Positions 1,041 to 14,674 are shown, numbered from the stretch's first letter. The stretch is 64,000 bases of DNA from Mycobacteriaceae bacterium (GCA_037138615.1 JBAXIA010000003.1:7006-71005), one strand, 5' to 3'. Notes: generated by a model from the sequence alone, not told the origin. Numbers and translations: made by a program.

Positions 1041-1075
1041 ATGCCGGCGCCGCCGCTGGGGAACGGCGTACACCG

Positions 1076-1148
1076 AGCCCCCTAACGGAATCGAACCGTT
1101 GACCTTTTCCTTACCATGGAAACGCTCTACCGACTGAGCTAAGGGGGC
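1076..1148 (-). tRNA. thrT: tRNA-Thr (anticodon GGT)
   Basis: Folded by hand: GCCCCCT/TA/GCTC-AGTCGGTA-GAGC/G/TTTCC-ATGGTAA-GGAAA/AGGTC/AACGG-TTCGATT-CCGTT/AGGGGGC+T. Confidence 0.9.
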
Positions 1149-1248: not shown

Positions 1249-1974
1249 TTAGCCGGACGCGACCTTGGCCGCACCGCGAGCGTGGCCGGCGACCCTGGCT
1301 GCCGCTGACCGGCCGCGCGGCGCAGCGTCTGCTTTAGCGGCTGCTGCTCCTGGCCCAGCGGCGGCCCTCGCCGGACGGCGAAGATCGCCTCGGCCGACGA
1401 CCGGAACTCCGGCAGCCACAGCGGCCGCAATACGCGGACCCGCTGCGGCACGAACGGCGGCCTGGGGTGTCGACGATCCACGAACCGCTGCCAACGGCGG
1501 CAGTGGGGGCAATGGCGCGAGCCCTAACCACTGCAACTCAGCCGACACCCAGTTGTAGCCGATGTCATACAGGGTGCTGCCGTAGGCAGACAGCGTCCCG
1601 ATGATGTTCAACGGGTTCTGCACCACGCCCGCCAGGGCGTTGACCGTCGCCTCAACGACCGGCTGGATGCCCTGGAAGTAGTTGATGTTGATCTGCGCCG
1701 CGATCACGCCACCGACGAGTGGAACGAAGTTGATCAGGTAGGAGCCCCCACCCACCACGTATTGAACAGTCGGGGTGATGGCGTAGTAGATGTCCTGGCC
1801 GATACCCGCGAGCCGGATGTCGTCGATGTGGACGGACGTCATCGCCGGACGGGCGGTCAACGGGTGGGCGGTCACCGTCGCGGGGGCGCTGACCATGACG
1901 GGGCCCAGGGCCACCGCTGCGGCAAGCGACAGGGCTGCCGCCGGAGCACGCCAGCCGCTCATCGAAACGGTCAC
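1249..1974 (-). CDS. Uncharacterised exported or membrane-anchored protein, tandem family copy 4 of 4 (last in transcription order)
   Basis: It has a hydrophobic N-terminus, then the shared core VHIDDIRLAGIGQDIYYAI...YFQGIQPVVEATVNALAGVVQNPLNIIGTLSAYG. A PLPPLPPL hinge and an Ala/Arg-rich tail follow. The GTG start lies 3 nt after the stop of copy 3. Confidence 0.75.
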   Translation of the reverse strand: MTVSMSGWRAPAAALSLAAAVALGPVMVSAPATVTAHPLTARPAMTSVHIDDIRLAGIGQDIYYAITPTVQYVVGGGSYLINFVPLVGGVIAAQININYFQGIQPVVEATVNALAGVVQNPLNIIGTLSAYGSTLYDIGYNWVSAELQWLGLAPLPPLPPLAAVRGSSTPQAAVRAAAGPRIAAAVAAGVPVVGRGDLRRPARAAAGPGAAAAKADAAPRGRSAAARVAGHARGAAKVASG

Positions 1975-1977
1975 GAT

Positions 1978-2787
1978 CTACCCGGCCGCGGCCGTCGCTG
2001 CGGTGCGAACGTTCTTGGCTGCCTTAACAACTGCGCCGCGGGTTGCCCGGGCCGTGTTTCGCACCTCGCTGTCGGTCTGCTGCGCCACCGAGTTCGCCTC
2101 ACTCGTCGCATCGTCGGCTACCTGGCGGGCACCGCTGATCGCGCTTCTTGTCGCGCGACCAACTCCACCACGGCTCTCCCTGGCTGGGGTGGGAACCGCG
2201 GCGGCCACGTCCGCAGTCACTTCGGCCGGTACAGACACCTCTGCCACAGCGACCGAACGCCGGCCGTTCGCGGTGCGCGCCGCGGCGGCGAGCGGAGCAG
2301 ACGAACCGCTTACCGAAGCCAGCGGCGGCAGCGGGGGTAACGGGGGTAGTGGGAATCCGAGCCACGCGGCTTCGGCTGCGACGAAGTTGTAGCCGATGAC
2401 GCCCAGGGAGGCGCCGTAGGCGGACAGTGTCGCGATGATGTTGAACGGGTTCTGGACGATTCCCGCCAACGCATTCACGGTCGCCTCCACGACCGGCTGG
2501 ATACCAGCGAAGTAGAGGATGCCGATCTGTGAGGAGACCGGAGGAATCCACGCCGTCGCCCACTGAGCCAATTCGACCCCGTAGGCCACCCATGGCTGGA
2601 TGGCGTAGTAGATGTCCTGTCCGATGCCGGCCAGCCGGATATCATCGATGTGTACGGTCGGCACCGCGATCGTTGGCTGAGCCAGCGTCACCGCAGGTGG
2701 GGCGACCAGCGACGGACCCAGAGCAACTGCACTCGCGGCCACCATGGCCACACCTGGAACCAGCAAAGAACGAGCCGAAACGCTCAC
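1978..2787 (-). CDS. Uncharacterised exported or membrane-anchored protein, tandem family copy 3 of 4
   Basis: Same architecture as copy 4: VHIDDIRLAGIGQDIYYAI...YFAGIQPVVEATVNALAGIVQNPFNIIATLSAYG, PLPPLPPLPPL and a basic Ala/Arg/Thr tail. A GAGGAG Shine-Dalgarno sequence precedes the GTG start. Confidence 0.8.
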   Translation of the reverse strand: MSVSARSLLVPGVAMVAASAVALGPSLVAPPAVTLAQPTIAVPTVHIDDIRLAGIGQDIYYAIQPWVAYGVELAQWATAWIPPVSSQIGILYFAGIQPVVEATVNALAGIVQNPFNIIATLSAYGASLGVIGYNFVAAEAAWLGFPLPPLPPLPPLASVSGSSAPLAAAARTANGRRSVAVAEVSVPAEVTADVAAAVPTPARESRGGVGRATRSAISGARQVADDATSEANSVAQQTDSEVRNTARATRGAVVKAAKNVRTAATAAAG

Positions 2788-2846
2788 GATTTCTCCTCAG
2801 TAGCTTGACCGTTACCTCCGAGAGTCTAACCGAACGTTTTCCGACG

Positions 2847-3590
2847 TTAACTCGCAGCGTTGGCAACAGCCCTGGCCGCGGCGCGAGGTGCTTTGGCACT
2901 CCGGCTTGCCCTGCCGGCGCTGTGCAGCTGACCGGCAGGACTCTCCGCCGTCGCACCGGCCTGCCCGGCGTCGCCGGCGGCGATCCTGGCCGCCCGCCGA
3001 AGCCCCCCATGGCCCAGTCTGGCCGGCGCTGGAACCTCTGACTCGGCGGCGGTCCGAGCGCCTGCCGTGGTGCGCGCCGCGGCAAGCGGGGTGGACGACC
3101 CACCCACCGAGGCGAACGGCAGCTGCGGCGGCAGGCCGGGAAGCCCCAACCAACTGACCTCGGCCGAAATGAAGGTGTAGACAGTGCTGGATAGCGCACT
3201 GACGTAGGCCGTGATGTCCCCGATGAGGTTCAGCGGGTTCTGCACCACGCTCGCCAGGGCGTCGACCGTCGACTCGACCAGCGGCTGGATACCCTTGAAG
3301 TAGATGACGCCGAGCTGGGAGTAGATCGGAGCGCCGACGATCGGGACCCACCACAACAGCCCCTGCACGGCCTGGACCCCGAACACCACCCAGCGGTTGA
3401 TGCCGGCGTAAATGTCCTGACCGATGCCGGCCAGCTGGATGTCTTCAATATGGACAACCGGCACCTTGACCTCCACCCGGGCCGATATCGCCAGGGGCGG
3501 CGCGATCAAGACCGGGCTGAGGACAAGTGCGCCGACGGTCGCAGCGGCAATGCCCGGCAGCAGCATCGAACGGTTCGAAACGCTCACCAT
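2847..3590 (-). CDS. Uncharacterised exported or membrane-anchored protein, tandem family copy 2 of 4
   Basis: The ORF extends to 3638, but MVSVSNRSMLLPG at 3590 aligns with the other copies and is preceded by GAGGAG. The core is VHIEDIQLAGIGQDIY...YFKGIQPLVESTVDALASVVQNPLNLIGDITAY. Confidence 0.8.
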   Translation of the reverse strand: MVSVSNRSMLLPGIAAATVGALVLSPVLIAPPLAISARVEVKVPVVHIEDIQLAGIGQDIYAGINRWVVFGVQAVQGLLWWVPIVGAPIYSQLGVIYFKGIQPLVESTVDALASVVQNPLNLIGDITAYVSALSSTVYTFISAEVSWLGLPGLPPQLPFASVGGSSTPLAAARTTAGARTAAESEVPAPARLGHGGLRRAARIAAGDAGQAGATAESPAGQLHSAGRASRSAKAPRAAARAVANAAS

Positions 3591-3641
3591 CGGCTCCTCA
3601 ACCTGTAGTCGGGCGGTGCTTTTCCACGCACCCGTCACGGG

Positions 3642-4394
3642 TTAACTCGCTGCGTCGGCGTTCGCCGTTACAGCGCCGGGGGCCTGGCTGGCGGTTCTGG
3701 CCGCAACACCACGGCCGGCCCTTGCGGTGCTCCGACCCTCGCGCGCGGTGCTGGCAACCGCCCGCTGGGCCGCGGCGGGCACCTCAGCGGCGGCGGTGCG
3801 AGCCGCGCGTCCGAGCTGGCCGCGGTTCGCCCGGGCGGGAGTCGGCTCCACGGCGGTGACCTCGGCGGTCACCTCAGTGGAAGCCGGCGGTTCGGCCACG
3901 ACTGTGGCGGCACGACGACTGGAAGCGGTACGCGGGGTGAGCAGCGCAGCAGACGATTCACCGACCGCGGCAGCCGACAGCGCCGGCACCCCGATACCGA
4001 AAGCGGGGAGCAGGGTGCTAATAATGCTGGTCAGCGCCGTGATGATATCCGTCGGGCCCTGGGACAACGTGTCAATGACCGTCACCACCGCGGTGATGAT
4101 CGGCTGCAGGGTGGTGTAGAGGGTCCCGATTCCGGCGGCGATCGACGGATTCCAGAAGAAAAAGTCCTGTGCCACCTGCACCAAGAACCCGGCCCACCCG
4201 TTGAGGGCGTTGTACAGGTCCAGGCCGACGCCGGCCAGTTGGATGTTCTCGATATGCACGGCCGGAATGTGGGCGGCCGGCTGCGCCAGAGTCACCGCGG
4301 GTGGAGCGACCAACGTCGGACCGAAGGCAACCGCGCCGACGGTCGCCAACGCCACACCCGGCACCAGCAGCGGACGAATTGAAACGCTGACCAT
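3642..4394 (-). CDS. Uncharacterised exported or membrane-anchored protein, tandem family copy 1 of 4 (most divergent)
   Basis: MVSVSIRPLLVPGVALATVGAVAFGP..., core VHIENIQLAGVGLDLY...LYTTLQPIITAVVTVIDTL. It lacks the PPL hinge but keeps the Ala/Arg tail. AGGAGG lies 5 nt upstream of the ATG. Confidence 0.8.
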   Translation of the reverse strand: MVSVSIRPLLVPGVALATVGAVAFGPTLVAPPAVTLAQPAAHIPAVHIENIQLAGVGLDLYNALNGWAGFLVQVAQDFFFWNPSIAAGIGTLYTTLQPIITAVVTVIDTLSQGPTDIITALTSIISTLLPAFGIGVPALSAAAVGESSAALLTPRTASSRRAATVVAEPPASTEVTAEVTAVEPTPARANRGQLGRAARTAAAEVPAAAQRAVASTAREGRSTARAGRGVAARTASQAPGAVTANADAAS

Positions 4395-4542
4395 TTTTCC
4401 TCCTGAAGACGTTCAGTGATGGAGCCATGATGGCATCAGATCCTTGCGTTTGCAAAGACTATAAAGGTTCGATCACGCCTTCGTTGCAGCTTGAGCGCGG
4501 CTCTTGCTTTTTGCGCCAGTGACAGGCCCTAGGGTCTAGGCC

Positions 4543-5259
4543 ATGGATTCGACTGACCGCCTCTACTTCCGGCAGCTGCTCTCCGGCCGCGACTTCGCCG
4601 CCGACGATCCCATCGCGGCGCAGATGCGCAATTTCGCCTACCTCATCGGTGACCGGGAGACCGGCGAGGCGGTGATGGTCGACCCGGCTTACGCTGCCGG
4701 CGACCTGCTCGACACCCTCGAGACCGACGATATGACGCTGTCCGGGGTCCTGGTGACTCACCATCACCCCGACCACGTCGGCGGCTCGATGATGGGCTTC
4801 GAGCTCAAAGGCCTGGCCGAACTCCTGGAGCGGGTGAGTGTGCCGGTTCACGTCAATACCCATGAGGCGCAATGGGTTTCACGGGTTACCGGTATCCCGA
4901 TGAGCGATCTGACCGCGCATGAACACGGCGACAGAGTCAGTATCGGCGCGATCGACGTCGAGTTGCTGCACACCCCGGGCCATACCCCGGGTAGCCAGTG
5001 TTTCCTCCTCGATGGCCGCCTGGTCGCCGGGGACACTCTGTTCCTCGACGGGTGCGGCCGCACCGACTTCCCCGGCGGCGATGTCGACGAGATGTTCCGC
5101 AGCCTGCAGAAGCTGGCCACGTTGTCAGGAGACCCGACGGTGTTCCCGGGCCACTGGTACTCCACCGAGCCCAGCGCCAGCCTCTCGGACGTCAGGAACA
5201 ACAATTACGTCTACAAGGTGTCCAACCTGGAGCAGTGGCGCTCGTTGATGAGCGGCTAA
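4543..5259 (+). CDS. MBL-fold metallo-hydrolase (glyoxalase II / hydroxyacylglutathione hydrolase-like, Rv0634c-like)
   Basis: It has the THHHPDH metal-binding motif, later His/Asp ligands (HTPGHTPGS) and a length of about 238 aa. Confidence 0.88.
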   Translation: MDSTDRLYFRQLLSGRDFAADDPIAAQMRNFAYLIGDRETGEAVMVDPAYAAGDLLDTLETDDMTLSGVLVTHHHPDHVGGSMMGFELKGLAELLERVSVPVHVNTHEAQWVSRVTGIPMSDLTAHEHGDRVSIGAIDVELLHTPGHTPGSQCFLLDGRLVAGDTLFLDGCGRTDFPGGDVDEMFRSLQKLATLSGDPTVFPGHWYSTEPSASLSDVRNNNYVYKVSNLEQWRSLMSG

Positions 5260-6786: not shown

Positions 6787-7155
6787 TCAGGAGTCCGCGA
6801 GGATCCAGGTTCGGGCCTGCTCGGACTCACCGGCCGGGAAGTGCTTGACCTCCGCGGAGATGAAGTGCGACGTGATGTGCTGCGCGACGTCCCCGAGTGG
6901 AGAGTCGGTGACCATCGCGATCTTCTTCACGTGCCGGTGGTGATCGCGAATGAACCGCAGGTGGTTGACCAACGCCCCGAAGCTGTCCCAGCCCGGGAAG
7001 TGCGGTGCGGCGATGATGAGCCCCGCCAGGTCGCCATGCTGCTCAATCTGGGGGTCCAGCGCTTGGGCAACCTCGATGAAATCGTTTTTCTCCAAGGTGG
7101 ATTCCGGCCGCAGTGTGAGGATGGATGTCGCGGTGTCGAGGTGGTAATCAATCAT
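6787..7155 (-). CDS. STAS/SpoIIAA-like protein (DUF3478-type)
   Basis: 122-aa ORF whose sequence pattern I recognise as the SpoIIAA-like family. The family call is from memory, not a search. Confidence 0.6.
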   Translation of the reverse strand: MIDYHLDTATSILTLRPESTLEKNDFIEVAQALDPQIEQHGDLAGLIIAAPHFPGWDSFGALVNHLRFIRDHHRHVKKIAMVTDSPLGDVAQHITSHFISAEVKHFPAGESEQARTWILADS

Positions 7156-7228: not shown

Positions 7229-8554
7229 CTAGGGACCCGGCGCGGGAATCGTTACGGCGGTGGTCGGCACCGGCGGGGGCGGTGTCGCGTCCTTGGGTGT
7301 CAACGCGCTGCCTTTGATCCAGTCACCCCATGGGATCGTCCAGTCACCGTTCTGATTGAGCGCAAGCGGCGGGCCGCCGGTGAATCGGATCTCGACGACA
7401 TCGCCGGGCTGGACGAAGTCGAAGAACCACTTGGCGTTCTCACCACTGAGGTTCAGGCAGCCATGCGAAAGGTTGGTATTTCCCTGGGCCCAGACGGTGT
7501 CATCAAGCTGATGCAGATAGATGCCGTCCAGGCTGATGCGGGTGGCGAAGCCAATCTTGCGCTTGTACCCGAACGCAGAGTTGTTTGGCAGTCCGTAGGT
7601 GGCGGAGTCCATGGTGACGACCTCGCCCTTGTCGATCACGGTGTACACGCCCGGCGGAGTCCACCACGAGAACGTCTTGCCCGCGACCACCGCGGTACCG
7701 CCGCGGCCCATCGAGGTGGGCATGGTGCGCACCAATCGGCCATTGTCGAACACACTCACCTGCTTGGTGATGTCGTTGGCAATCGCGACATGCGCATCGC
7801 CGATAGTGAAGGTGTTCTTGGCATCAGCCTGGCCGTAAAGCCCGTCGCCAAGCTTGAGCCCAAACATGTTGAGCGCCACAGATACCGTGGTTCCGGGCGT
7901 GTAGTAGTGCTCGGGACGCCAGTGCGCCACATAATCGTCCACCCAGAACCACGAACCCTTCACCGGCGGACTGGTGGTGACAATCATGTTCTTCTCGGCC
8001 AGCACCTTGTCGGTGATGGCCTCATCGAAGTGAGCGGCGATCACGGTGCCGATGCCGTACTTCTGCTCCTCGTGAATGGCGAAGCCACCCTGCACCTCGA
8101 GGTAGGGAATCGCATAGTTATACGGCGACAGGGTGGTGAAATTGATGGTGCGCGACAGCGGCACCCCGCTGTTGCCCTTGCTGTTGACCGTCATCGTGTA
8201 ACCGCGGGCGAAATTCAGCCGTTGCGTCGGCGCCCACGACGTGCGATCCGGGGAGATTTCACCCTCCACGACGTTGCCCCAGTCATCCGAGAGGACGACA
8301 TCGGTGATCTTGCCGTCGACGACGTTGGCGGCGGGCGTGGTCAGCGGGTTGACATCCTCGGCGCCGTCGAACGGGGCCAGGCCGAGTAGCGGTGGCTGCG
8401 GGGTGGCCGGCGGCAACTGTGCCTGGGCAGTCGCGGTGACGGTCTTGCATCCGCCCTGGCAACCCGGCAGCCCTGCGACGTCGCTGACCAACACCGCCGC
8501 CAGCAACGTCACGAAGACGAGGCTCGCAGCGCGGGCGCGGCGGGGGAAACTCAC
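7229..8554 (-). CDS. L,D-transpeptidase lipoprotein (LdtMt2/LdtMt5 (LprQ)-like)
   Basis: Signal peptide with a Cys (LPGCQGGC), Ig-like N-terminal region and a YkuD catalytic motif (HQLDD...NLSHGCLNLS). Length is 441 aa. Confidence 0.88.
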   Translation of the reverse strand: MSFPRRARAASLVFVTLLAAVLVSDVAGLPGCQGGCKTVTATAQAQLPPATPQPPLLGLAPFDGAEDVNPLTTPAANVVDGKITDVVLSDDWGNVVEGEISPDRTSWAPTQRLNFARGYTMTVNSKGNSGVPLSRTINFTTLSPYNYAIPYLEVQGGFAIHEEQKYGIGTVIAAHFDEAITDKVLAEKNMIVTTSPPVKGSWFWVDDYVAHWRPEHYYTPGTTVSVALNMFGLKLGDGLYGQADAKNTFTIGDAHVAIANDITKQVSVFDNGRLVRTMPTSMGRGGTAVVAGKTFSWWTPPGVYTVIDKGEVVTMDSATYGLPNNSAFGYKRKIGFATRISLDGIYLHQLDDTVWAQGNTNLSHGCLNLSGENAKWFFDFVQPGDVVEIRFTGGPPLALNQNGDWTIPWGDWIKGSALTPKDATPPPPVPTTAVTIPAPGP

Positions 8555-8689
8555 CGTTTTACTCCAAGGCAGGTGTCGAAGGGTCAGTTGTCACCGTTGA
8601 CGGAAAAATCATAGACGCAAACGACCCCCGAACCACACCTGGCCGGTTGCTCCACGGGGCGCCCGGGCAATAGTGCCAGACTGACGCCC

Positions 8690-9565
8690 ATGACCGAACC
8701 CGGTGCGGCCCGCGTGGCGGTGTATCTCGACTTCGACAACATCGTGTTATCGCGCTACGACCAGGTGCACGGGCGAAACTCGTTTCAGCGCGATAAGGCA
8801 AAAGGCCTGGAGGCCGCCAACCTGACCCGGGCGATCGTCGACGTGGGCGCGGTCCTGGATTTCGCGTCATCCTTCGGCACCCTGGTGCTCACCCGCGCAT
8901 ACGCCGACTGGTCGGCGGTGATCAACGCCGGGTACCGCGGGCAGCTGGTGGGCCGGGCGGTGGACTTGGTGCAGCTGTTTCCGGCGGCCGCCTACGGCAA
9001 GAATGCCGCTGATATCCGGCTGGCGGTGGATGCGGTGGAGGACATGTTCCGGCTCCCCGACCTGACGCACGTGGTGATCGTGGCCGGCGACTCTGACTAC
9101 ATCCCGCTGGCGCAGCGGTGCAAGCGACTCGGTCGCTACGTGGTGGGCATCGGAGTGGCAGGGTCTTCGAGTAAGTCACTTGCCGCGGCCTGCGACGAGT
9201 TCGTCATCTACGACGCGCTCCCGGGCGTTCCGGCCGTAGCGCCTGCTCCCGCCGAGGGCGAAGGATCCAAGGCCCGCACCCGCAAGGCCAAGCCGGCCGA
9301 ACCCGATGAGTCCGACGAGACTGAGACACCCGATCCCCAGGCCGCTGCCACCGCACTACTCAAGCGTGCCCTGCAGATCGGCCTGGAGAAGGATGATGCC
9401 GAGTGGTTGCACAACTCGGCGGTCAAGGCCCAGATGAAACGGATGGACCCGTCGTTCTCCGAGAAGTCTCTGGGGTTTAAGTCCTTCAGCGATTTTCTGC
9501 GCTCCCGTACCGACACGGTGGAGCTCGATGAGACCTCGACGACCAGGTTGGTGAAACTGCGCTAG
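8690..9565 (+). CDS. NYN-domain ribonuclease with C-terminal OST-HTH/LOTUS domain (MARF1/limkain-b1-like architecture)
   Basis: VAVYLDFDNI...VVIVAGDSDYIPLAQRCKRLGRYVVGIGV are the PIN-like NYN acidic motifs. A low-complexity linker follows, then a C-terminal segment of about 70 aa (LLKRALQ...VKAQMKRMDPSFSEKSLGFKSFSDFL) typical of OST-HTH. Confidence 0.8.
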   Translation: MTEPGAARVAVYLDFDNIVLSRYDQVHGRNSFQRDKAKGLEAANLTRAIVDVGAVLDFASSFGTLVLTRAYADWSAVINAGYRGQLVGRAVDLVQLFPAAAYGKNAADIRLAVDAVEDMFRLPDLTHVVIVAGDSDYIPLAQRCKRLGRYVVGIGVAGSSSKSLAAACDEFVIYDALPGVPAVAPAPAEGEGSKARTRKAKPAEPDESDETETPDPQAAATALLKRALQIGLEKDDAEWLHNSAVKAQMKRMDPSFSEKSLGFKSFSDFLRSRTDTVELDETSTTRLVKLR

Positions 9566-11220
9566 TCGCTGATCCCCAGCCGACGCACCAGATCCGGTCC
9601 GCCCACCTCGGCGATGAACGCCGGGGCCGCACACACCACAAGTTGGTCGCGCGCCCGGGACAGCCCGACATACAACCGTTCCCGTGAGCGTTGGAAGGCA
9701 GCCTTGTCGTTGACGACCAGAACCACGGCCCGTCGCTCAAGGCCCTTGAAGCCGAGAACGTGTCCGTAGAAAACCTGCTCGGCATCCCAGAAGCTGTCCC
9801 AGTAGGCCGTATTGCCCTGCCCTTGGCGGGCGATCTGTTCGGGGTGGCGGCTGCCGGTGGTCAGCAGTGCGACGTCCTCAGGCCGCCAGCCTTCGGCCAG
9901 GAGCGCCTCGATCTGATCATCGCCGACATCGAAAGCATCTTCGGGCGTGCAGGACACGAAGCGGACGTCGGGGCCGTTGGCGCCGAGGAAGCGCATCGGG
10001 TGGTCGACCAGTGGCTCGAAGGCCTTGGCGATCTGGCGGGTGTTGCGGATGTTCTGCTCGAGGATCAGCGGCACCAGTGGCACCGGCGGGGTGCCCTTGC
10101 GGTCGAAAACGCGCTGGCCCTCATCGCTGAACAGGTAGACCCCGCCGGTGTCCGGATCGCGTAGCGCGGCCAGGATCGGTTCCCACCAGCTGTCCGCGAA
10201 GTCCTGGGCCTCATCGATGACGATCGAATCGAACCGGTGACCGTCGGGCAGGTTGCTCGCCAGTTCCAGCATTTGCGTGGGCAGGTCACGTTCGAAGAAC
10301 TGTTCGGCGGCAGCGGTTCGCTCAGATTCATCTGGCCCCTCGGCGGCGCCCCAGGCGATACCAAGGTCGTGGAACTCCCCGACATACCCGGGCCGCTGGC
10401 GTCGGTTCCATCCCGAGGTGATGCGTTTAAGAAACGATGCCAGCCCGTGGGAGTAACAGATGAGCGCGACCCGCTGGCCGGAGTTGGCCAGTCGGCGGGC
10501 CTGCTCGAGCGCCATGAAGGTCTTGCCACTGCCTGCACCGCCCCGGACCTCGACGCGGGTGAGCAGTTTGATCGCATCGAGGATGATCGCCTGTTGGTCG
10601 GTCAGAATGTTGGCAGCGTCTTCGTTCTCCAACGCGCGGGCGACGACGTCGCGTTGTGGCAGACCGCGCCCATCCAAAGCCGTCTGAAGTTCCTCGATTC
10701 CCTTGACACTCAGTAGCGGCAGTTCAGTCTTCTGGTTGAGGGCGATATCGCGGATGCGCCCCACCACGGTCGGGAAGTCATCGCGGTCGATGACCATCCA
10801 GCGCGGACAGTCCGGCAGCGCGAAGTCTTCAGAGAACTGGCTATTCGGTAGGACGACCACGTGGTTCCACCGCATCCGGCCCTGGGTCCAGCGGGGATCC
10901 TTCTCGATGAAATCCCGCAACGCGTAGCGGGCTTGACGCACCTGACGAACCGGGTCGATGGTCTTGACCTGACCACTGCGCAGATGTTGCAGCCACTTCT
11001 GGCCGTTGTGGGTGACCTCGCCGCCCTTGACCTCAACGCAGACGATGCCCGCACCTTCGATGGCGACAAGGAAGTCGATCTCGTGATCCTTGAGGTGATC
11101 GGTGACCCGCTGGCCGGCAATCACGAGATCGCCGTCGCCGAGCTGCTCGGTCAGCACAGTCCAGACACGCCGCTCGGTGTCATTGGCCAAGCGAGGGTCA
11201 TCAGGCAGCGTGATGGCCAT
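9562..11220 (-). CDS. NERD-domain nuclease fused to an SF1 (UvrD/AAA_30-like) helicase
   Basis: N-terminal NERD/PD-(D/E)xK pattern (HEIDFLVAIEGAGIVCVEVKGG), Walker A GGAGSGKT, Walker B VIDEAQDF and a C-terminal YVGLSRARDQLVV motif. The ORF reaches 11241, but the ATG at 11220 has an AGGGGAGGGG Shine-Dalgarno sequence upstream. Confidence 0.85.
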   Translation of the reverse strand: MAITLPDDPRLANDTERRVWTVLTEQLGDGDLVIAGQRVTDHLKDHEIDFLVAIEGAGIVCVEVKGGEVTHNGQKWLQHLRSGQVKTIDPVRQVRQARYALRDFIEKDPRWTQGRMRWNHVVVLPNSQFSEDFALPDCPRWMVIDRDDFPTVVGRIRDIALNQKTELPLLSVKGIEELQTALDGRGLPQRDVVARALENEDAANILTDQQAIILDAIKLLTRVEVRGGAGSGKTFMALEQARRLANSGQRVALICYSHGLASFLKRITSGWNRRQRPGYVGEFHDLGIAWGAAEGPDESERTAAAEQFFERDLPTQMLELASNLPDGHRFDSIVIDEAQDFADSWWEPILAALRDPDTGGVYLFSDEGQRVFDRKGTPPVPLVPLILEQNIRNTRQIAKAFEPLVDHPMRFLGANGPDVRFVSCTPEDAFDVGDDQIEALLAEGWRPEDVALLTTGSRHPEQIARQGQGNTAYWDSFWDAEQVFYGHVLGFKGLERRAVVLVVNDKAAFQRSRERLYVGLSRARDQLVVCAAPAFIAEVGGPDLVRRLGISD

Positions 11221-11655
11221 TTCGACCCCTCCCCTGTGCATGGCTGCTCACTGCGGTGAATCGTAAGGCCGCTCCCACCCTGTACAGTGGGAAGTCAGGA
11301 GTCGTCTCGCCCTCGGTGGCGACATCGGGTTTCAATCCACCATCTGGATTCACTCGAACGATTTCCCTCCCCGGCAATACGTTTGCGGCCGGGCCTGAAG
11401 ATGAAGGAAACCCATGGAAAACAGTCTGTTCTCCCACCCCGTGGAAGCCGAGAACGCTGCACACACCAATGAGCACACCGCCGAACACTCCTCGGAGCCA
11501 GTCCAGAATCCGGTGTTCTCCGACAAGGACAAATAACTTTTGACGTTGCTGCACAACGATTTTCAATCGAGTGCTAATCACGCAGGTTTACCGTGCTACG
11601 CTGGGGTGGGGCGCCCGATTTAGGCGTTCTTTCGATTGAATGAGAGAAGTAAAGA

Positions 11656-11859
11656 ATGGCACAGGGAACTGTGAAATGGTTCAACAGCGAAAAGGGCTTC
11701 GGCTTCATCGCACCCGATGGTGGGGCTGAGGACGTTTTCGTCCACTTCTCCGAAATCTCCGGAAGCGGCTACCGGTCGCTGGAGGAGAACCAGCGGGTCA
11801 CCTTCGACATCGGCCAGGGTGCCAAGGGCCCCCAGGCTCTCGCGGTTCGCCCCGAGTAG
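11656..11859 (+). CDS. cspA: Cold-shock protein CspA
   Basis: [32 protein letters not shown] carries the RNP1/RNP2 cold-shock domain motifs. Length is 67 aa. Confidence 0.97.
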
Positions 11860-13461: not shown

Positions 13462-14538
13462 TCATCTGCGCAGCGAAAACGACTTCTCGAACAGATAGTG
13501 GAAGACCATCCACTCGTTGCCGTCGCGATACCCGAAGACCTCCGAGCAGAACAGCAGGAACATCCGCCAGCGCTCCAGCGCCACCGAGGCCGATGTCGGG
13601 CCGCCCTCCAGTGCCCGCAGACACTCTTCCCTGTTGGCGTCCAGGCGTTCCAGCCACGCGTCCAGGGTGCGGGTGTACTGACGTCCGTTGACATCCCACA
13701 CGTGGGTTTGTTTCAAATCGGCCGGCAGGAAGTTCTCGAACAGATCCCGGCTGGGCATGGTGCCGCCGGCGAAGAAGTACTTACCCATCCAGTCCGTGGT
13801 TTTGAAGTCGTAGGCGAAACGCCGGTTACCCAGGATCTGCACCATCATTCGACCATCGGGTCGCAGCCATGAGCTCACCTTCGCCAGCACCATGTCGTAG
13901 TTCTTCATGTGCTCGAGCATCTCGCAGGACACGATCACGTCGAAGCGCTCGCGGAACTCCGGATCGTCGAAGGAGCTGGCGTCGGCTTTGACACAGTCGA
14001 ACCGACCGTCGTGCTTGGAGTTCTTCGACGCGATGTACTCCTGCTGGGTGGCGCTGTTGGACAGGAACGTGACGTGCACGCCGTCGTAGTTCTCCAGCAC
14101 GTAGCTACCGTGGGAACCCCAGCCGCAGCCGAGATCAAGAAGTCGGATGGCCTTCTTGTCTTTGATCAGCTCGCCGAGATTGAGTCGCTCTTCGAGGAAC
14201 GTGTGCAACATCGCGACTTCGGCATCGGCAAGGCCGGTGGAGTCTTGTGGGAACAAACAGCACGAGTACTTCAGATATGGCCCCAGGACAAGATGGAAAA
14301 ATCGGGTGGGCACCTCGTAGTGCTGAATATTCGCGTCATCCTGGTTCAGCGCCCCGGCACTGGCCCGCAACTTCTCGAAGTACTTCTTCTTGTAGAAGGC
14401 CTGCTTCTCAGTATCGCCGCCACACTCGAAGGTCCGGACCCACTGTGCACACATGATGCGCACCAGGGCGCGCATGACCGCGTCAGGCAGCAGGCCACGT
14501 TCTTTGAGGGCGAGGATGGTGTTGAAGAGACGGTCCAC
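13462..14538 (-). CDS. SAM-dependent methyltransferase, CFA-synthase superfamily, coclaurine-N-methyltransferase-like subgroup
   Basis: SAM motif I LLDLGCGWGS. The N-terminal segment HYEVPTRFFHLVLGPYLKYSCCLF resembles plant/algal CNMT-like enzymes more than the mycolic-acid methyltransferases. GC content is visibly lower than in the flanks. Confidence 0.85.
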   Translation of the reverse strand: MDRLFNTILALKERGLLPDAVMRALVRIMCAQWVRTFECGGDTEKQAFYKKKYFEKLRASAGALNQDDANIQHYEVPTRFFHLVLGPYLKYSCCLFPQDSTGLADAEVAMLHTFLEERLNLGELIKDKKAIRLLDLGCGWGSHGSYVLENYDGVHVTFLSNSATQQEYIASKNSKHDGRFDCVKADASSFDDPEFRERFDVIVSCEMLEHMKNYDMVLAKVSSWLRPDGRMMVQILGNRRFAYDFKTTDWMGKYFFAGGTMPSRDLFENFLPADLKQTHVWDVNGRQYTRTLDAWLERLDANREECLRALEGGPTSASVALERWRMFLLFCSEVFGYRDGNEWMVFHYLFEKSFSLRR

Positions 14539-14591
14539 AACGGCGATCGTTTCACATCCAGGGAGCCGTTTTCGCGACCTGAAAGCATTTG

Positions 14592-14674
14592 TGGCAGGTA
14601 CAGGATTCGAACCTGTGTAGGCGTTAGCCGACGGATTTACAGTCCGCTCCCATTGGCCGCTCGGGCAACCTGCC
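14592..14674 (-). tRNA. tyrT: tRNA-Tyr (anticodon GTA, long variable arm)
   Basis: Hand fold: acceptor GGCAGGT...ACCTGCC+A, anticodon arm GCGGA-CTGTAAA-TCCGT, extra arm, and T arm ACAGG-TTCGAAT-CCTGT. Confidence 0.9.

Follow-up and report, generated by a model that had tools for sequence, protein, structure and literature searches.

Genome context and gene models

The stretch of 64,000 nucleotides analyzed here, referred to below as the window, belongs to Mycobacteriaceae bacterium (GCA_037138615.1, JBAXIA010000003.1:7006-71005). Four open reading frames (ORFs) on its minus strand, named c1 to c4 and together spanning positions 1249-4394, encode paralogous proteins in a slot between a tRNA-Thr gene and a divergent gene of the metallo-beta-lactamase (MBL) fold. 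Profile comparisons show the central domain (core) of these proteins to be homologous to the domain that PE12-type proteins carry at their C-terminus. Coordinates refer to the 64-kb window, and the order of transcription is c4 to c1. E-values of c1 to c4 are from the hidden Markov model (HMM) of the family.

4543-5259, plus strand: MBL-fold gene, glyoxalase II-like (Pfam PF00753, E 5.5e-21); divergent, upstream boundary of the slot, context only.
3642-4394, minus strand: c4, 250 aa, nearest the MBL-fold gene and first transcribed; ORF with Shine-Dalgarno (SD) site, E 1.1e-60; leader residues 1-45, core about 46-151 (nt 3942-4259), basic tail 152-250, no PPLPP motif.
2847-3590, minus strand: c3, 247 aa from the ATG at 3590, E 2.6e-91; leader 1-45 (nt 3456-3590), core 46-159 (nt 3114-3455, ending LPGLPPQLPF), tail 160-247.
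1978-2787, minus strand: c2, 269 aa, E 1.2e-103; leader 1-44 (nt 2656-2787), three-helix core 45-157 (nt 2317-2655, ending LPPLPPLPPLA), basic tail 158-269.
1249-1974, minus strand: c1, nearest tRNA-Thr, 241 aa (GTG at 1974) or 237 aa (ATG at 1962), E 3.7e-99; leader 1-47, core 48-162 (nt 1489-1833, ending PLPPLPPLA), basic tail 163-241.
1075-1148, minus strand: tRNA-Thr (GGT), found by ARAGORN and Rfam; downstream boundary of the slot, context only.
966-1040: tRNA-Met, beyond tRNA-Thr and followed by rpmG and a hadA-like dehydratase gene.

The genes are separated by 51 nt (c4-c3), 59 nt (c3-c2) and 3 nt (c2-c1), and SD sites precede three of them at a distance of 3-5 nt from the start: AGGAGG at 4404-4399 for c4, GAGGAG at 3599-3594 for c3 (3 nt ahead of the ATG) and GAGGAG at 2798-2793 for c2. 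Mapping of the ORFs thus reproduced the arrangement, the gaps and the three ribosome-binding sites given in the original prediction, which had been made from the sequence alone. The mechanical ORF of c3 reaches 3638, but its SD site favours the ATG at 3590. No SD site was found for c1, which starts 3 nt past the stop codon of c2 and is therefore probably translationally coupled to it. Independent gene calls on another contig comprise the same four genes, with counterparts of 237 aa for c1 and 247 aa for c3; the true start of c1 may be the ATG four codons downstream. A scan for promoters yielded no sigma-70-like candidate, and the terminator-like matches numbered two, vs 1.8 expected by chance.

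Paralogy and selection

All four proteins share a hydrophobic N-terminus, a core nearly free of Lys and Arg, and a basic tail rich in Ala and Arg (11-14 Lys+Arg residues). The family HMM identified the four ORFs in the window at E-values of 1e-60 to 1e-103, well outside what chance would give, and no further member. Identity to c1 is 55% for c2, 47% for c3 and 37% for c4, the most divergent paralogue. The motifs VHI[ED][DN]I[QR]LAG[IV]G.D[IL]Y and IQP..E.TV.AL....QNP.N, on which the family had been proposed, are present in the copies. The PPLPPL hinge attributed to three of the four is clear in c1 and c2, but degenerate in c3 (LPGLPPQLPF) and absent from c4; the C-terminal ending A-A-[SG] attributed to all four does not apply to c1, which ends in A-S-G.

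The four ORFs are confirmed as real paralogous genes. The protein c2 is 100% identical to WCJ53_01030, a protein of a metagenome-assembled genome (MAG) at NCBI, and c3 has a near-identical orthologue of 247 aa (P0045) in other metagenomes. The GC content at third codon positions (GC3) is 0.74-0.82 for the array genes vs 0.79-0.85 for their neighbours, in agreement with the native GC content noted earlier. Comparison with a close relative (locus L001) gave ratios of non-synonymous to synonymous substitution rates (dN/dS) for the core of 0.11 (c1), 0.18 (c2) and 0.24 (c4), the values being confined to these three copies since the third copies of L001 and L002 belong to a paralogue clade other than that of c3. 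By this measure purifying selection acts on the core, and constraint on leaders and tails is weaker in the same comparison.

Conservation of the slot in related genomes

Related loci were collected from one genome per GTDB species, which yielded 17 loci, all from MAGs labelled Mycobacterium, Mycolicibacterium or Mycobacteriaceae (one only Actinomycetes); one of them lies on a complete chromosome of 3.26 Mb. The host lineage is uncultured and probably aquatic with a small genome. Intact orthologues occupy the same slot in these 17 species-level genomes in one to five copies, with a single copy in L014, L016 and L017. In every sufficiently long locus the order is MBL-fold gene, one to five family copies, tRNA-Thr, tRNA-Met, rpmG and hadABC: an MBL-fold orthologue (84-97% identical) adjoins the array in 16 of the 17 loci, and the order tRNA-Thr/tRNA-Met/rpmG/hadA is found in the seven that reach far enough. 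In a neighbour-joining tree of all copies, the paralogues form clades that are common to many genomes and keep their positions. The c4-type clade, divergent and devoid of the polyproline motif, is proximal to the MBL-fold gene in nine sources (the window and eight loci), and a c1-type copy was placed beside tRNA-Thr in 15 of the 17 related loci.

Such shared, position-keeping clades argue for an array expansion that is old and maintained, as had been suggested from the divergence of the copies, and purifying selection on the core is in line with it. The array is the product of old tandem duplications, a lineage-specific elaboration. The slot is also variable, as predicted: besides the differences in copy number, L003 carries additional genes between the family and tRNA-Thr (7672-11680), encoding a GT4 glycosyltransferase, a GDP-mannose 4,6-dehydratase, an NAD-dependent epimerase and a low-molecular-weight phosphotyrosine phosphatase, which by their annotation look like a surface deoxyhexose-glycan module. 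The two-copy layout of L003 recurs in L005. In L015, a long-read MAG assembly, a family copy is split into three overlapping frames (3632-4565) and represents either a pseudogene or homopolymer sequencing errors.

The short M. tuberculosis ORF that the original prediction placed at this position, Rv0634A, is an unrelated protein of 83 aa. A peptide published for it, EIEVDDDLIQK (PMC5703486), is likewise unrelated and has no counterpart in the window, and Rv0634A was rejected as a relative.

Structure of the encoded proteins

The leader was characterized from 175 leaders aligned on their S-x-R motif. Its consensus is M-s-V-S-v-R-S-L-L-v-P-G-V-A-l-A-a-A-G-A-V-A-L-s-P...PP-A, with an Arg that is invariant (175/175), about 20 residues of Ala, Val, Gly and Leu, and a Pro-rich sequence thereafter. 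Insertion energies on the Hessa scale sum to between +2.8 and +5 for the leaders of the four copies, which would fit the h-region of a signal peptide better than a stable anchor; candidate signal peptidase sites are TLA|QP, VTA|HP and ISA|RV. A Tat signal was rejected, as the twin-arginine pattern (RR-x-hydrophobic-hydrophobic) occurs in 0/175 leaders, the single Arg standing in an S-x-R-S-L-L context. Lipoproteins were rejected as well, in accordance with the original prediction: no Cys is present in c1-c3, none is visible in c4, and Cys makes up 0.0% of the family cores. Judged on these features, export of c1-c4 is plausible.

The core of c2 was modelled with AlphaFold2 from a 75-sequence alignment that covered all three types of family member (window type, distant leader-bearing relatives and PE-type proteins, see below). 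The model comprises three helices of 31, 31 and 29 residues, with a predicted local distance difference test (pLDDT) score of 89.8 and a predicted template modelling (pTM) score of 0.74, so that the core of about 110 aa is confidently predicted to be an antiparallel three-helix bundle. It combines a grand average of hydropathicity (GRAVY) of +0.55 to +0.62 with 12-18% aromatic residues, 10-11% Asn+Gln, 5-6% Asp+Glu and about 1% Lys+Arg. The helices are amphipathic, with conserved a/d-type positions and regularly spaced stripes of Asp, Glu, Asn and Gln. Helices 1 and 2 have the motif Y-x-x-I-[QE]-P-x-V in common, which suggests an internal repeat. Hessa sums for the core helices are about +2 to +6, most core windows lying at +4 to +6 kcal/mol; with these sums unsupportive, transmembrane core helices were rejected. 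The Kyte-Doolittle threshold is exceeded in the core of one of the four copies, c4, by windows that start at residues 116-124 and reach residue 142. Foldseek searches with full-length and core-only models against the PDB, and against BFVD, returned nothing below an E-value of about 1.6, the highest-ranking matches being helical hairpins of a generic kind.

The tail, rich in Ala and Arg, is predicted at low confidence. In the window type it contains a motif [GS]-E-V-R-x-x-A-R-A-x-R-G embedded in low-complexity sequence; in c2, where it lies at about 2026-2061, the motif SEVRNTARATRG sits in the basic tail. Distant relatives at the fbiC slot described below (P0226, P0218, P0251) have the form A-Q-G-E-V-R-G, and PE-type members are without a tail.

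Family searches and distant relatives

Noise (DotA, ATP synthase b, Tox-HDC) was all that Pfam and NCBIfam profiles yielded for the four proteins and their distant relatives, and a sequence profile search of the PDB gave only Fap1 at E 0.52. No Pfam or NCBIfam match above noise was obtained for Mce, DUF732 or other curated mycobacterial envelope families, in agreement with the earlier exclusion of Mce and DUF732. The PE domain (PF00934) has no match in any of the four proteins, even at E<=1. No Pfam or NCBIfam model covers the core in the approximately 20 members scanned or in the matches with precomputed domains, and a literature search for LPPLPPLPP together with mycobacteria returned no papers.

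A first homology search collected 295 proteins annotated as "hypothetical", the few organism-named ones originating from metagenome bins of Mycobacterium or Mycobacteriaceae. When 1.84 billion cluster representatives (50% identity) were searched exhaustively with HMMER, 365 of them matched. These include a distant layer of proteins of 300-570 aa with the same leader, a longer spacer of Ala, Pro and Thr, the same core ending in LPPLPPLPP and a long low-complexity tail. Two members are from cultured strains, WP_149446882.1 (Mycolicibacterium sp. P9-22) and WP_280826850.1 (Mycobacterium sp. OTB74), both "hypothetical". The proteins P0038 (350 aa), P0209 (515 aa) and P0247 (504 aa) have two matched stretches or an extra helical region of about 200 aa past the polyproline, so that the core can evidently be joined to further modules.

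Relationship to PE12-type proteins

A profile restricted to the core matched a fragment that is named "PE family protein" by NCBI. A further profile (A4), built from core-bearing fragments, matched 429 proteins; among the best 120 of these, about 100 are 275-329 aa long with a precomputed PF00934 domain, and several are named "PE family protein" (M. haemophilum, M. alsense, M. saskatchewanense). In these proteins a Gly/Ala linker connects the PE domain to the core, and the C-terminus lies 0-4 residues past LPPLPPLPP. Alignment of the window family with this PE set by hhalign gave a probability of 98.9% and an E-value of 2.7e-17 over 101 columns, and the window-family HMM reached E-values down to 1.4e-8 on PE proteins (scaled to 1.84e9 sequences). 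In the reverse direction, a profile of the PE C-terminal region matched c2 (1.6e-14), c1 (3e-12) and c3 (3.7e-9); the match to c4, in which the polyproline motif is absent, is weak (E 1.7). The PE12-type domain is characterized by Y..IEPWV.YG in helix 1, Y...EP.VQ in helix 2 and a third helix ending in E.NW, followed by LPPLPPLPP.

The PE gene of M. haemophilum is located between fbiC and an Rv1171-like gene with mshB. By the established numbering of M. tuberculosis genes, mshB and fbiC are Rv1170 and Rv1173, which makes these PE proteins orthologues of PE12 by synteny. Rv1172c is PE12 (PMC1660551; PMC12459340), a substrate of ESX-5 (PMC12459340) for which a protease-shaving study, covered in a review (PMC12209268), reported surface exposure. 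The leader-type genes of strains P9-22 and OTB74 are also found between fbiC (divergent) and an Rv1171-like gene with mshB, as are leader-type relatives in two MAGs, which among leader-type proteins are the two nearest to the PE clade. PE-type and leader-type genes hence hold one chromosomal slot in different species; the window array lies in the MBL-fold/tRNA-Thr slot and not in this one. Neighbour-joining placed the PE clade as one branch inside the leader-type radiation and the window type in a clade of its own.

Taken together, the shared core, the shared slot and the nested position of the PE clade point to one envelope domain with two alternative carriers, a hydrophobic leader and a PE (ESX) export module, and the domain is older than its fusion to the PE domain. 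In the simplest history, an ancestral leader-bearing envelope gene would have resided at fbiC-mshB, where in the lineage of the slow growers a PE domain would have replaced the leader; a sister lineage of the ancestral gene would have moved to the thrT slot and been amplified there. That the core could not be assigned to a family is borne out for curated families (Pfam, NCBIfam, PDB), but it is homologous to the C-terminal domain of the PE12 type as well as to a wider set of leader-bearing proteins from cultured and uncultured mycobacteria. Similarly, "not PE/PPE" is correct for the N-terminal PE domain, but the core matches the C-terminal domain of PE12-type proteins. The original prediction had regarded a confident match to a characterized family as removing the novelty of the core; the match obtained is indeed a confident one, to a domain that has itself hardly been characterized.

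Proposed function and alternative explanations

The favoured explanation, to which a probability of roughly 60% is assigned, is that the four genes encode paralogous cell-envelope proteins of four modules that are exported by Sec, associate with lipids or partner proteins and are tethered by their basic tails. The leader would serve as a signal peptide for Sec, or as a weak signal-anchor, so that the remainder comes to lie outside the cytoplasmic membrane. It would be followed by the three-helix amphipathic bundle of about 110 aa, rich in aromatic and amide residues and nearly free of Lys and Arg, by the polyproline stop LPPLPPLPP and by a tail of Ala and Arg that is presumably disordered. The acidic hydrophobic bundle may interact with lipids of the envelope or with other paralogues as partners, hetero-oligomers of the co-transcribed copies are conceivable, and the basic tail could tether the protein to anionic polymers of the wall or membrane. 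As both alternative N-terminal modules are export devices, and PE12 is reported as an ESX-5 substrate and at the surface, action of the core outside the plasma membrane is the most economical assumption; from this we infer Sec export and envelope residence of c1-c4, while lipid or partner association, hetero-oligomers and tethering by the tail would follow from the nature of the modules.

Several observations weigh against this explanation. The small-residue cleavage sites TLA|QP, VTA|HP and ISA|RV are unevenly conserved in the family, and the leader shows stronger conservation than is common for signal peptides in general; it may stay attached as an anchor or serve specific recognition. The strongly basic C-terminal tail better fits the cytoplasm under the positive-inside rule. 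The link to PE12 is built on synteny and on profile statistics for PE12 orthologues, and not on the sequence of M. tuberculosis PE12 itself. Finally, Foldseek found no significant match, and the best non-significant ones are the transmembrane hairpins of ATP-synthase c subunits.

These hairpins, the GRAVY of the core with its near lack of Lys and Arg, and the c4 segment above the Kyte-Doolittle threshold would suit integral proteins of the plasma membrane, in which the leader and the three core helices form four spans, for example of a small channel or a scaffold. Both ends would then be inside, with the N-terminal Arg and the Arg-rich tail cytoplasmic. Such a topology is considered unlikely, given the polar stripes of the amphipathic helices, Hessa values of +4 to +6 kcal/mol for most core windows and a threshold crossed in the core of only one copy in four; moreover, the PE12-type domain is leaderless, ends at PPLPP, and belongs to an ESX-5 substrate reported to be surface-exposed. 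That surface exposure, together with helices of 29-31 residues that are hydrophobic, aromatic-rich and free of Lys and Arg with one narrow polar stripe each, is compatible with an alpha-helical oligomer of bundles that, after export, is embedded in the mycolic-acid outer membrane, or lines it, and has a role in permeability or transport. The paralogues, distinct types in a fixed order across many genomes, would be the subunits of a hetero-oligomer, and roles in permeability or transport have been proposed for some PE/PPE proteins. However, this proposal is drawn from composition, there is no structural match to a known pore, and some genomes (L014, L016, L017) manage with one copy, all of which makes it quite unlikely. 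Its extension, in which the three-helix domain is a new alpha-helical component of the outer membrane that arrives via Sec or ESX-5 and whose hetero-oligomers set permeability or adhesion in aquatic mycobacteria of small genome size, is speculative and improbable.

It is very improbable that the ORFs arose by chance in DNA of high GC content or are what is left of a decaying mobile island at tRNA genes. The array does adjoin tRNA genes, long antisense ORFs overlap it, the scan gave no sigma-70-like promoter and the copies in L015 are fragmented. On the other hand, the genes are under purifying selection and possess native GC3 and SD sites, hundreds of homologues exist, and synteny extends over 17 species, in the comparison of which no integrase or repeats were found at the array or the related loci. 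A mobile island at the tRNA genes was rejected on the lack of an integrase, the native GC content and the conserved synteny.

Comparison with known systems

PE12 and its orthologues of about 300 aa in slow growers share with the window proteins the three-helix core of about 100 aa, the repeated Y..[IL][EQ]P.V and the terminal LPPLPPLPP; both groups are specific to mycobacteria and are envelope or surface proteins, a location that is putative for c1-c4. They differ in that PE12-type proteins begin with a PE domain (PF00934), continue with a Gly/Ala linker and end 0-4 residues past the polyproline, whereas the window proteins have a hydrophobic leader, a basic tail of about 80-110 residues, the thrT slot and tandem amplification. 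WP_149446882.1 and WP_280826850.1 resemble the window proteins in the leader (M-x-V-S-x-R-S-[YL]-L-x-A-G-V-A), the core, the polyproline stop and a low-complexity tail with a G-E-V-R-G-like motif. They are distinguished by a spacer of 50-100 aa of Ala, Pro and Thr ahead of the core and by tails rich in Thr, Lys, Asp and Pro instead of Ala and Arg; they are single-copy, reside at another locus and belong to a clade apart from the window type.

A precedent for one envelope domain carried by PE/PPE, by a classical signal peptide or by nothing is the PE-PPE (PF08237) hydrolase, including LipY; PF08237 is, however, an alpha/beta hydrolase of known activity with no known relation in sequence or fold to the helical core. 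In HBHA and the laminin-binding protein, too, a helical domain is joined to a C-terminal tail that is basic, Ala-rich and of low complexity and that binds anionic polymers, but their tails are rich in Lys and Pro and not in Arg, and no homology to either protein appeared among the Pfam and PDB searches of the array proteins.

What is new here is the leader-bearing, tailed and tandemly amplified form of the poorly characterized family of the PE12 C-terminal domain. By this comparison, the C-terminal half of the M. tuberculosis T-cell antigen PE12 is delimited as a discrete domain of three helices with LPPLPPLPP at its end. The presence of this domain behind ordinary leaders in the same slot of non-pathogenic and uncultured mycobacteria provides a concrete case of an export-module switch and offers tractable non-pathogenic models, e.g. 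Mycolicibacterium sp. P9-22; the family is in need of a curated profile.

Other genes in the window

Downstream of the MBL-fold gene, a single-domain SpoIIAA-like (STAS) protein is encoded at 6787-7155 (minus strand) beside genes for a short-chain dehydrogenase/reductase (SDR) and an enoyl-CoA hydratase. Two convergent genes at 8690-9565 (plus strand) and 9562-11241 (minus strand) overlap by 4 nt at their ends; one of the pair encodes a NYN ribonuclease with OST-HTH/LOTUS, the other NERD with a UvrD-like helicase C-terminus, domains that are frequent in genes of defence or RNA surveillance. At 13462-14538 (minus strand), a methyltransferase gene resembling mycolic-acid cyclopropane synthases (CMAS) adjoins tRNA-Tyr (14591-14674, minus strand).

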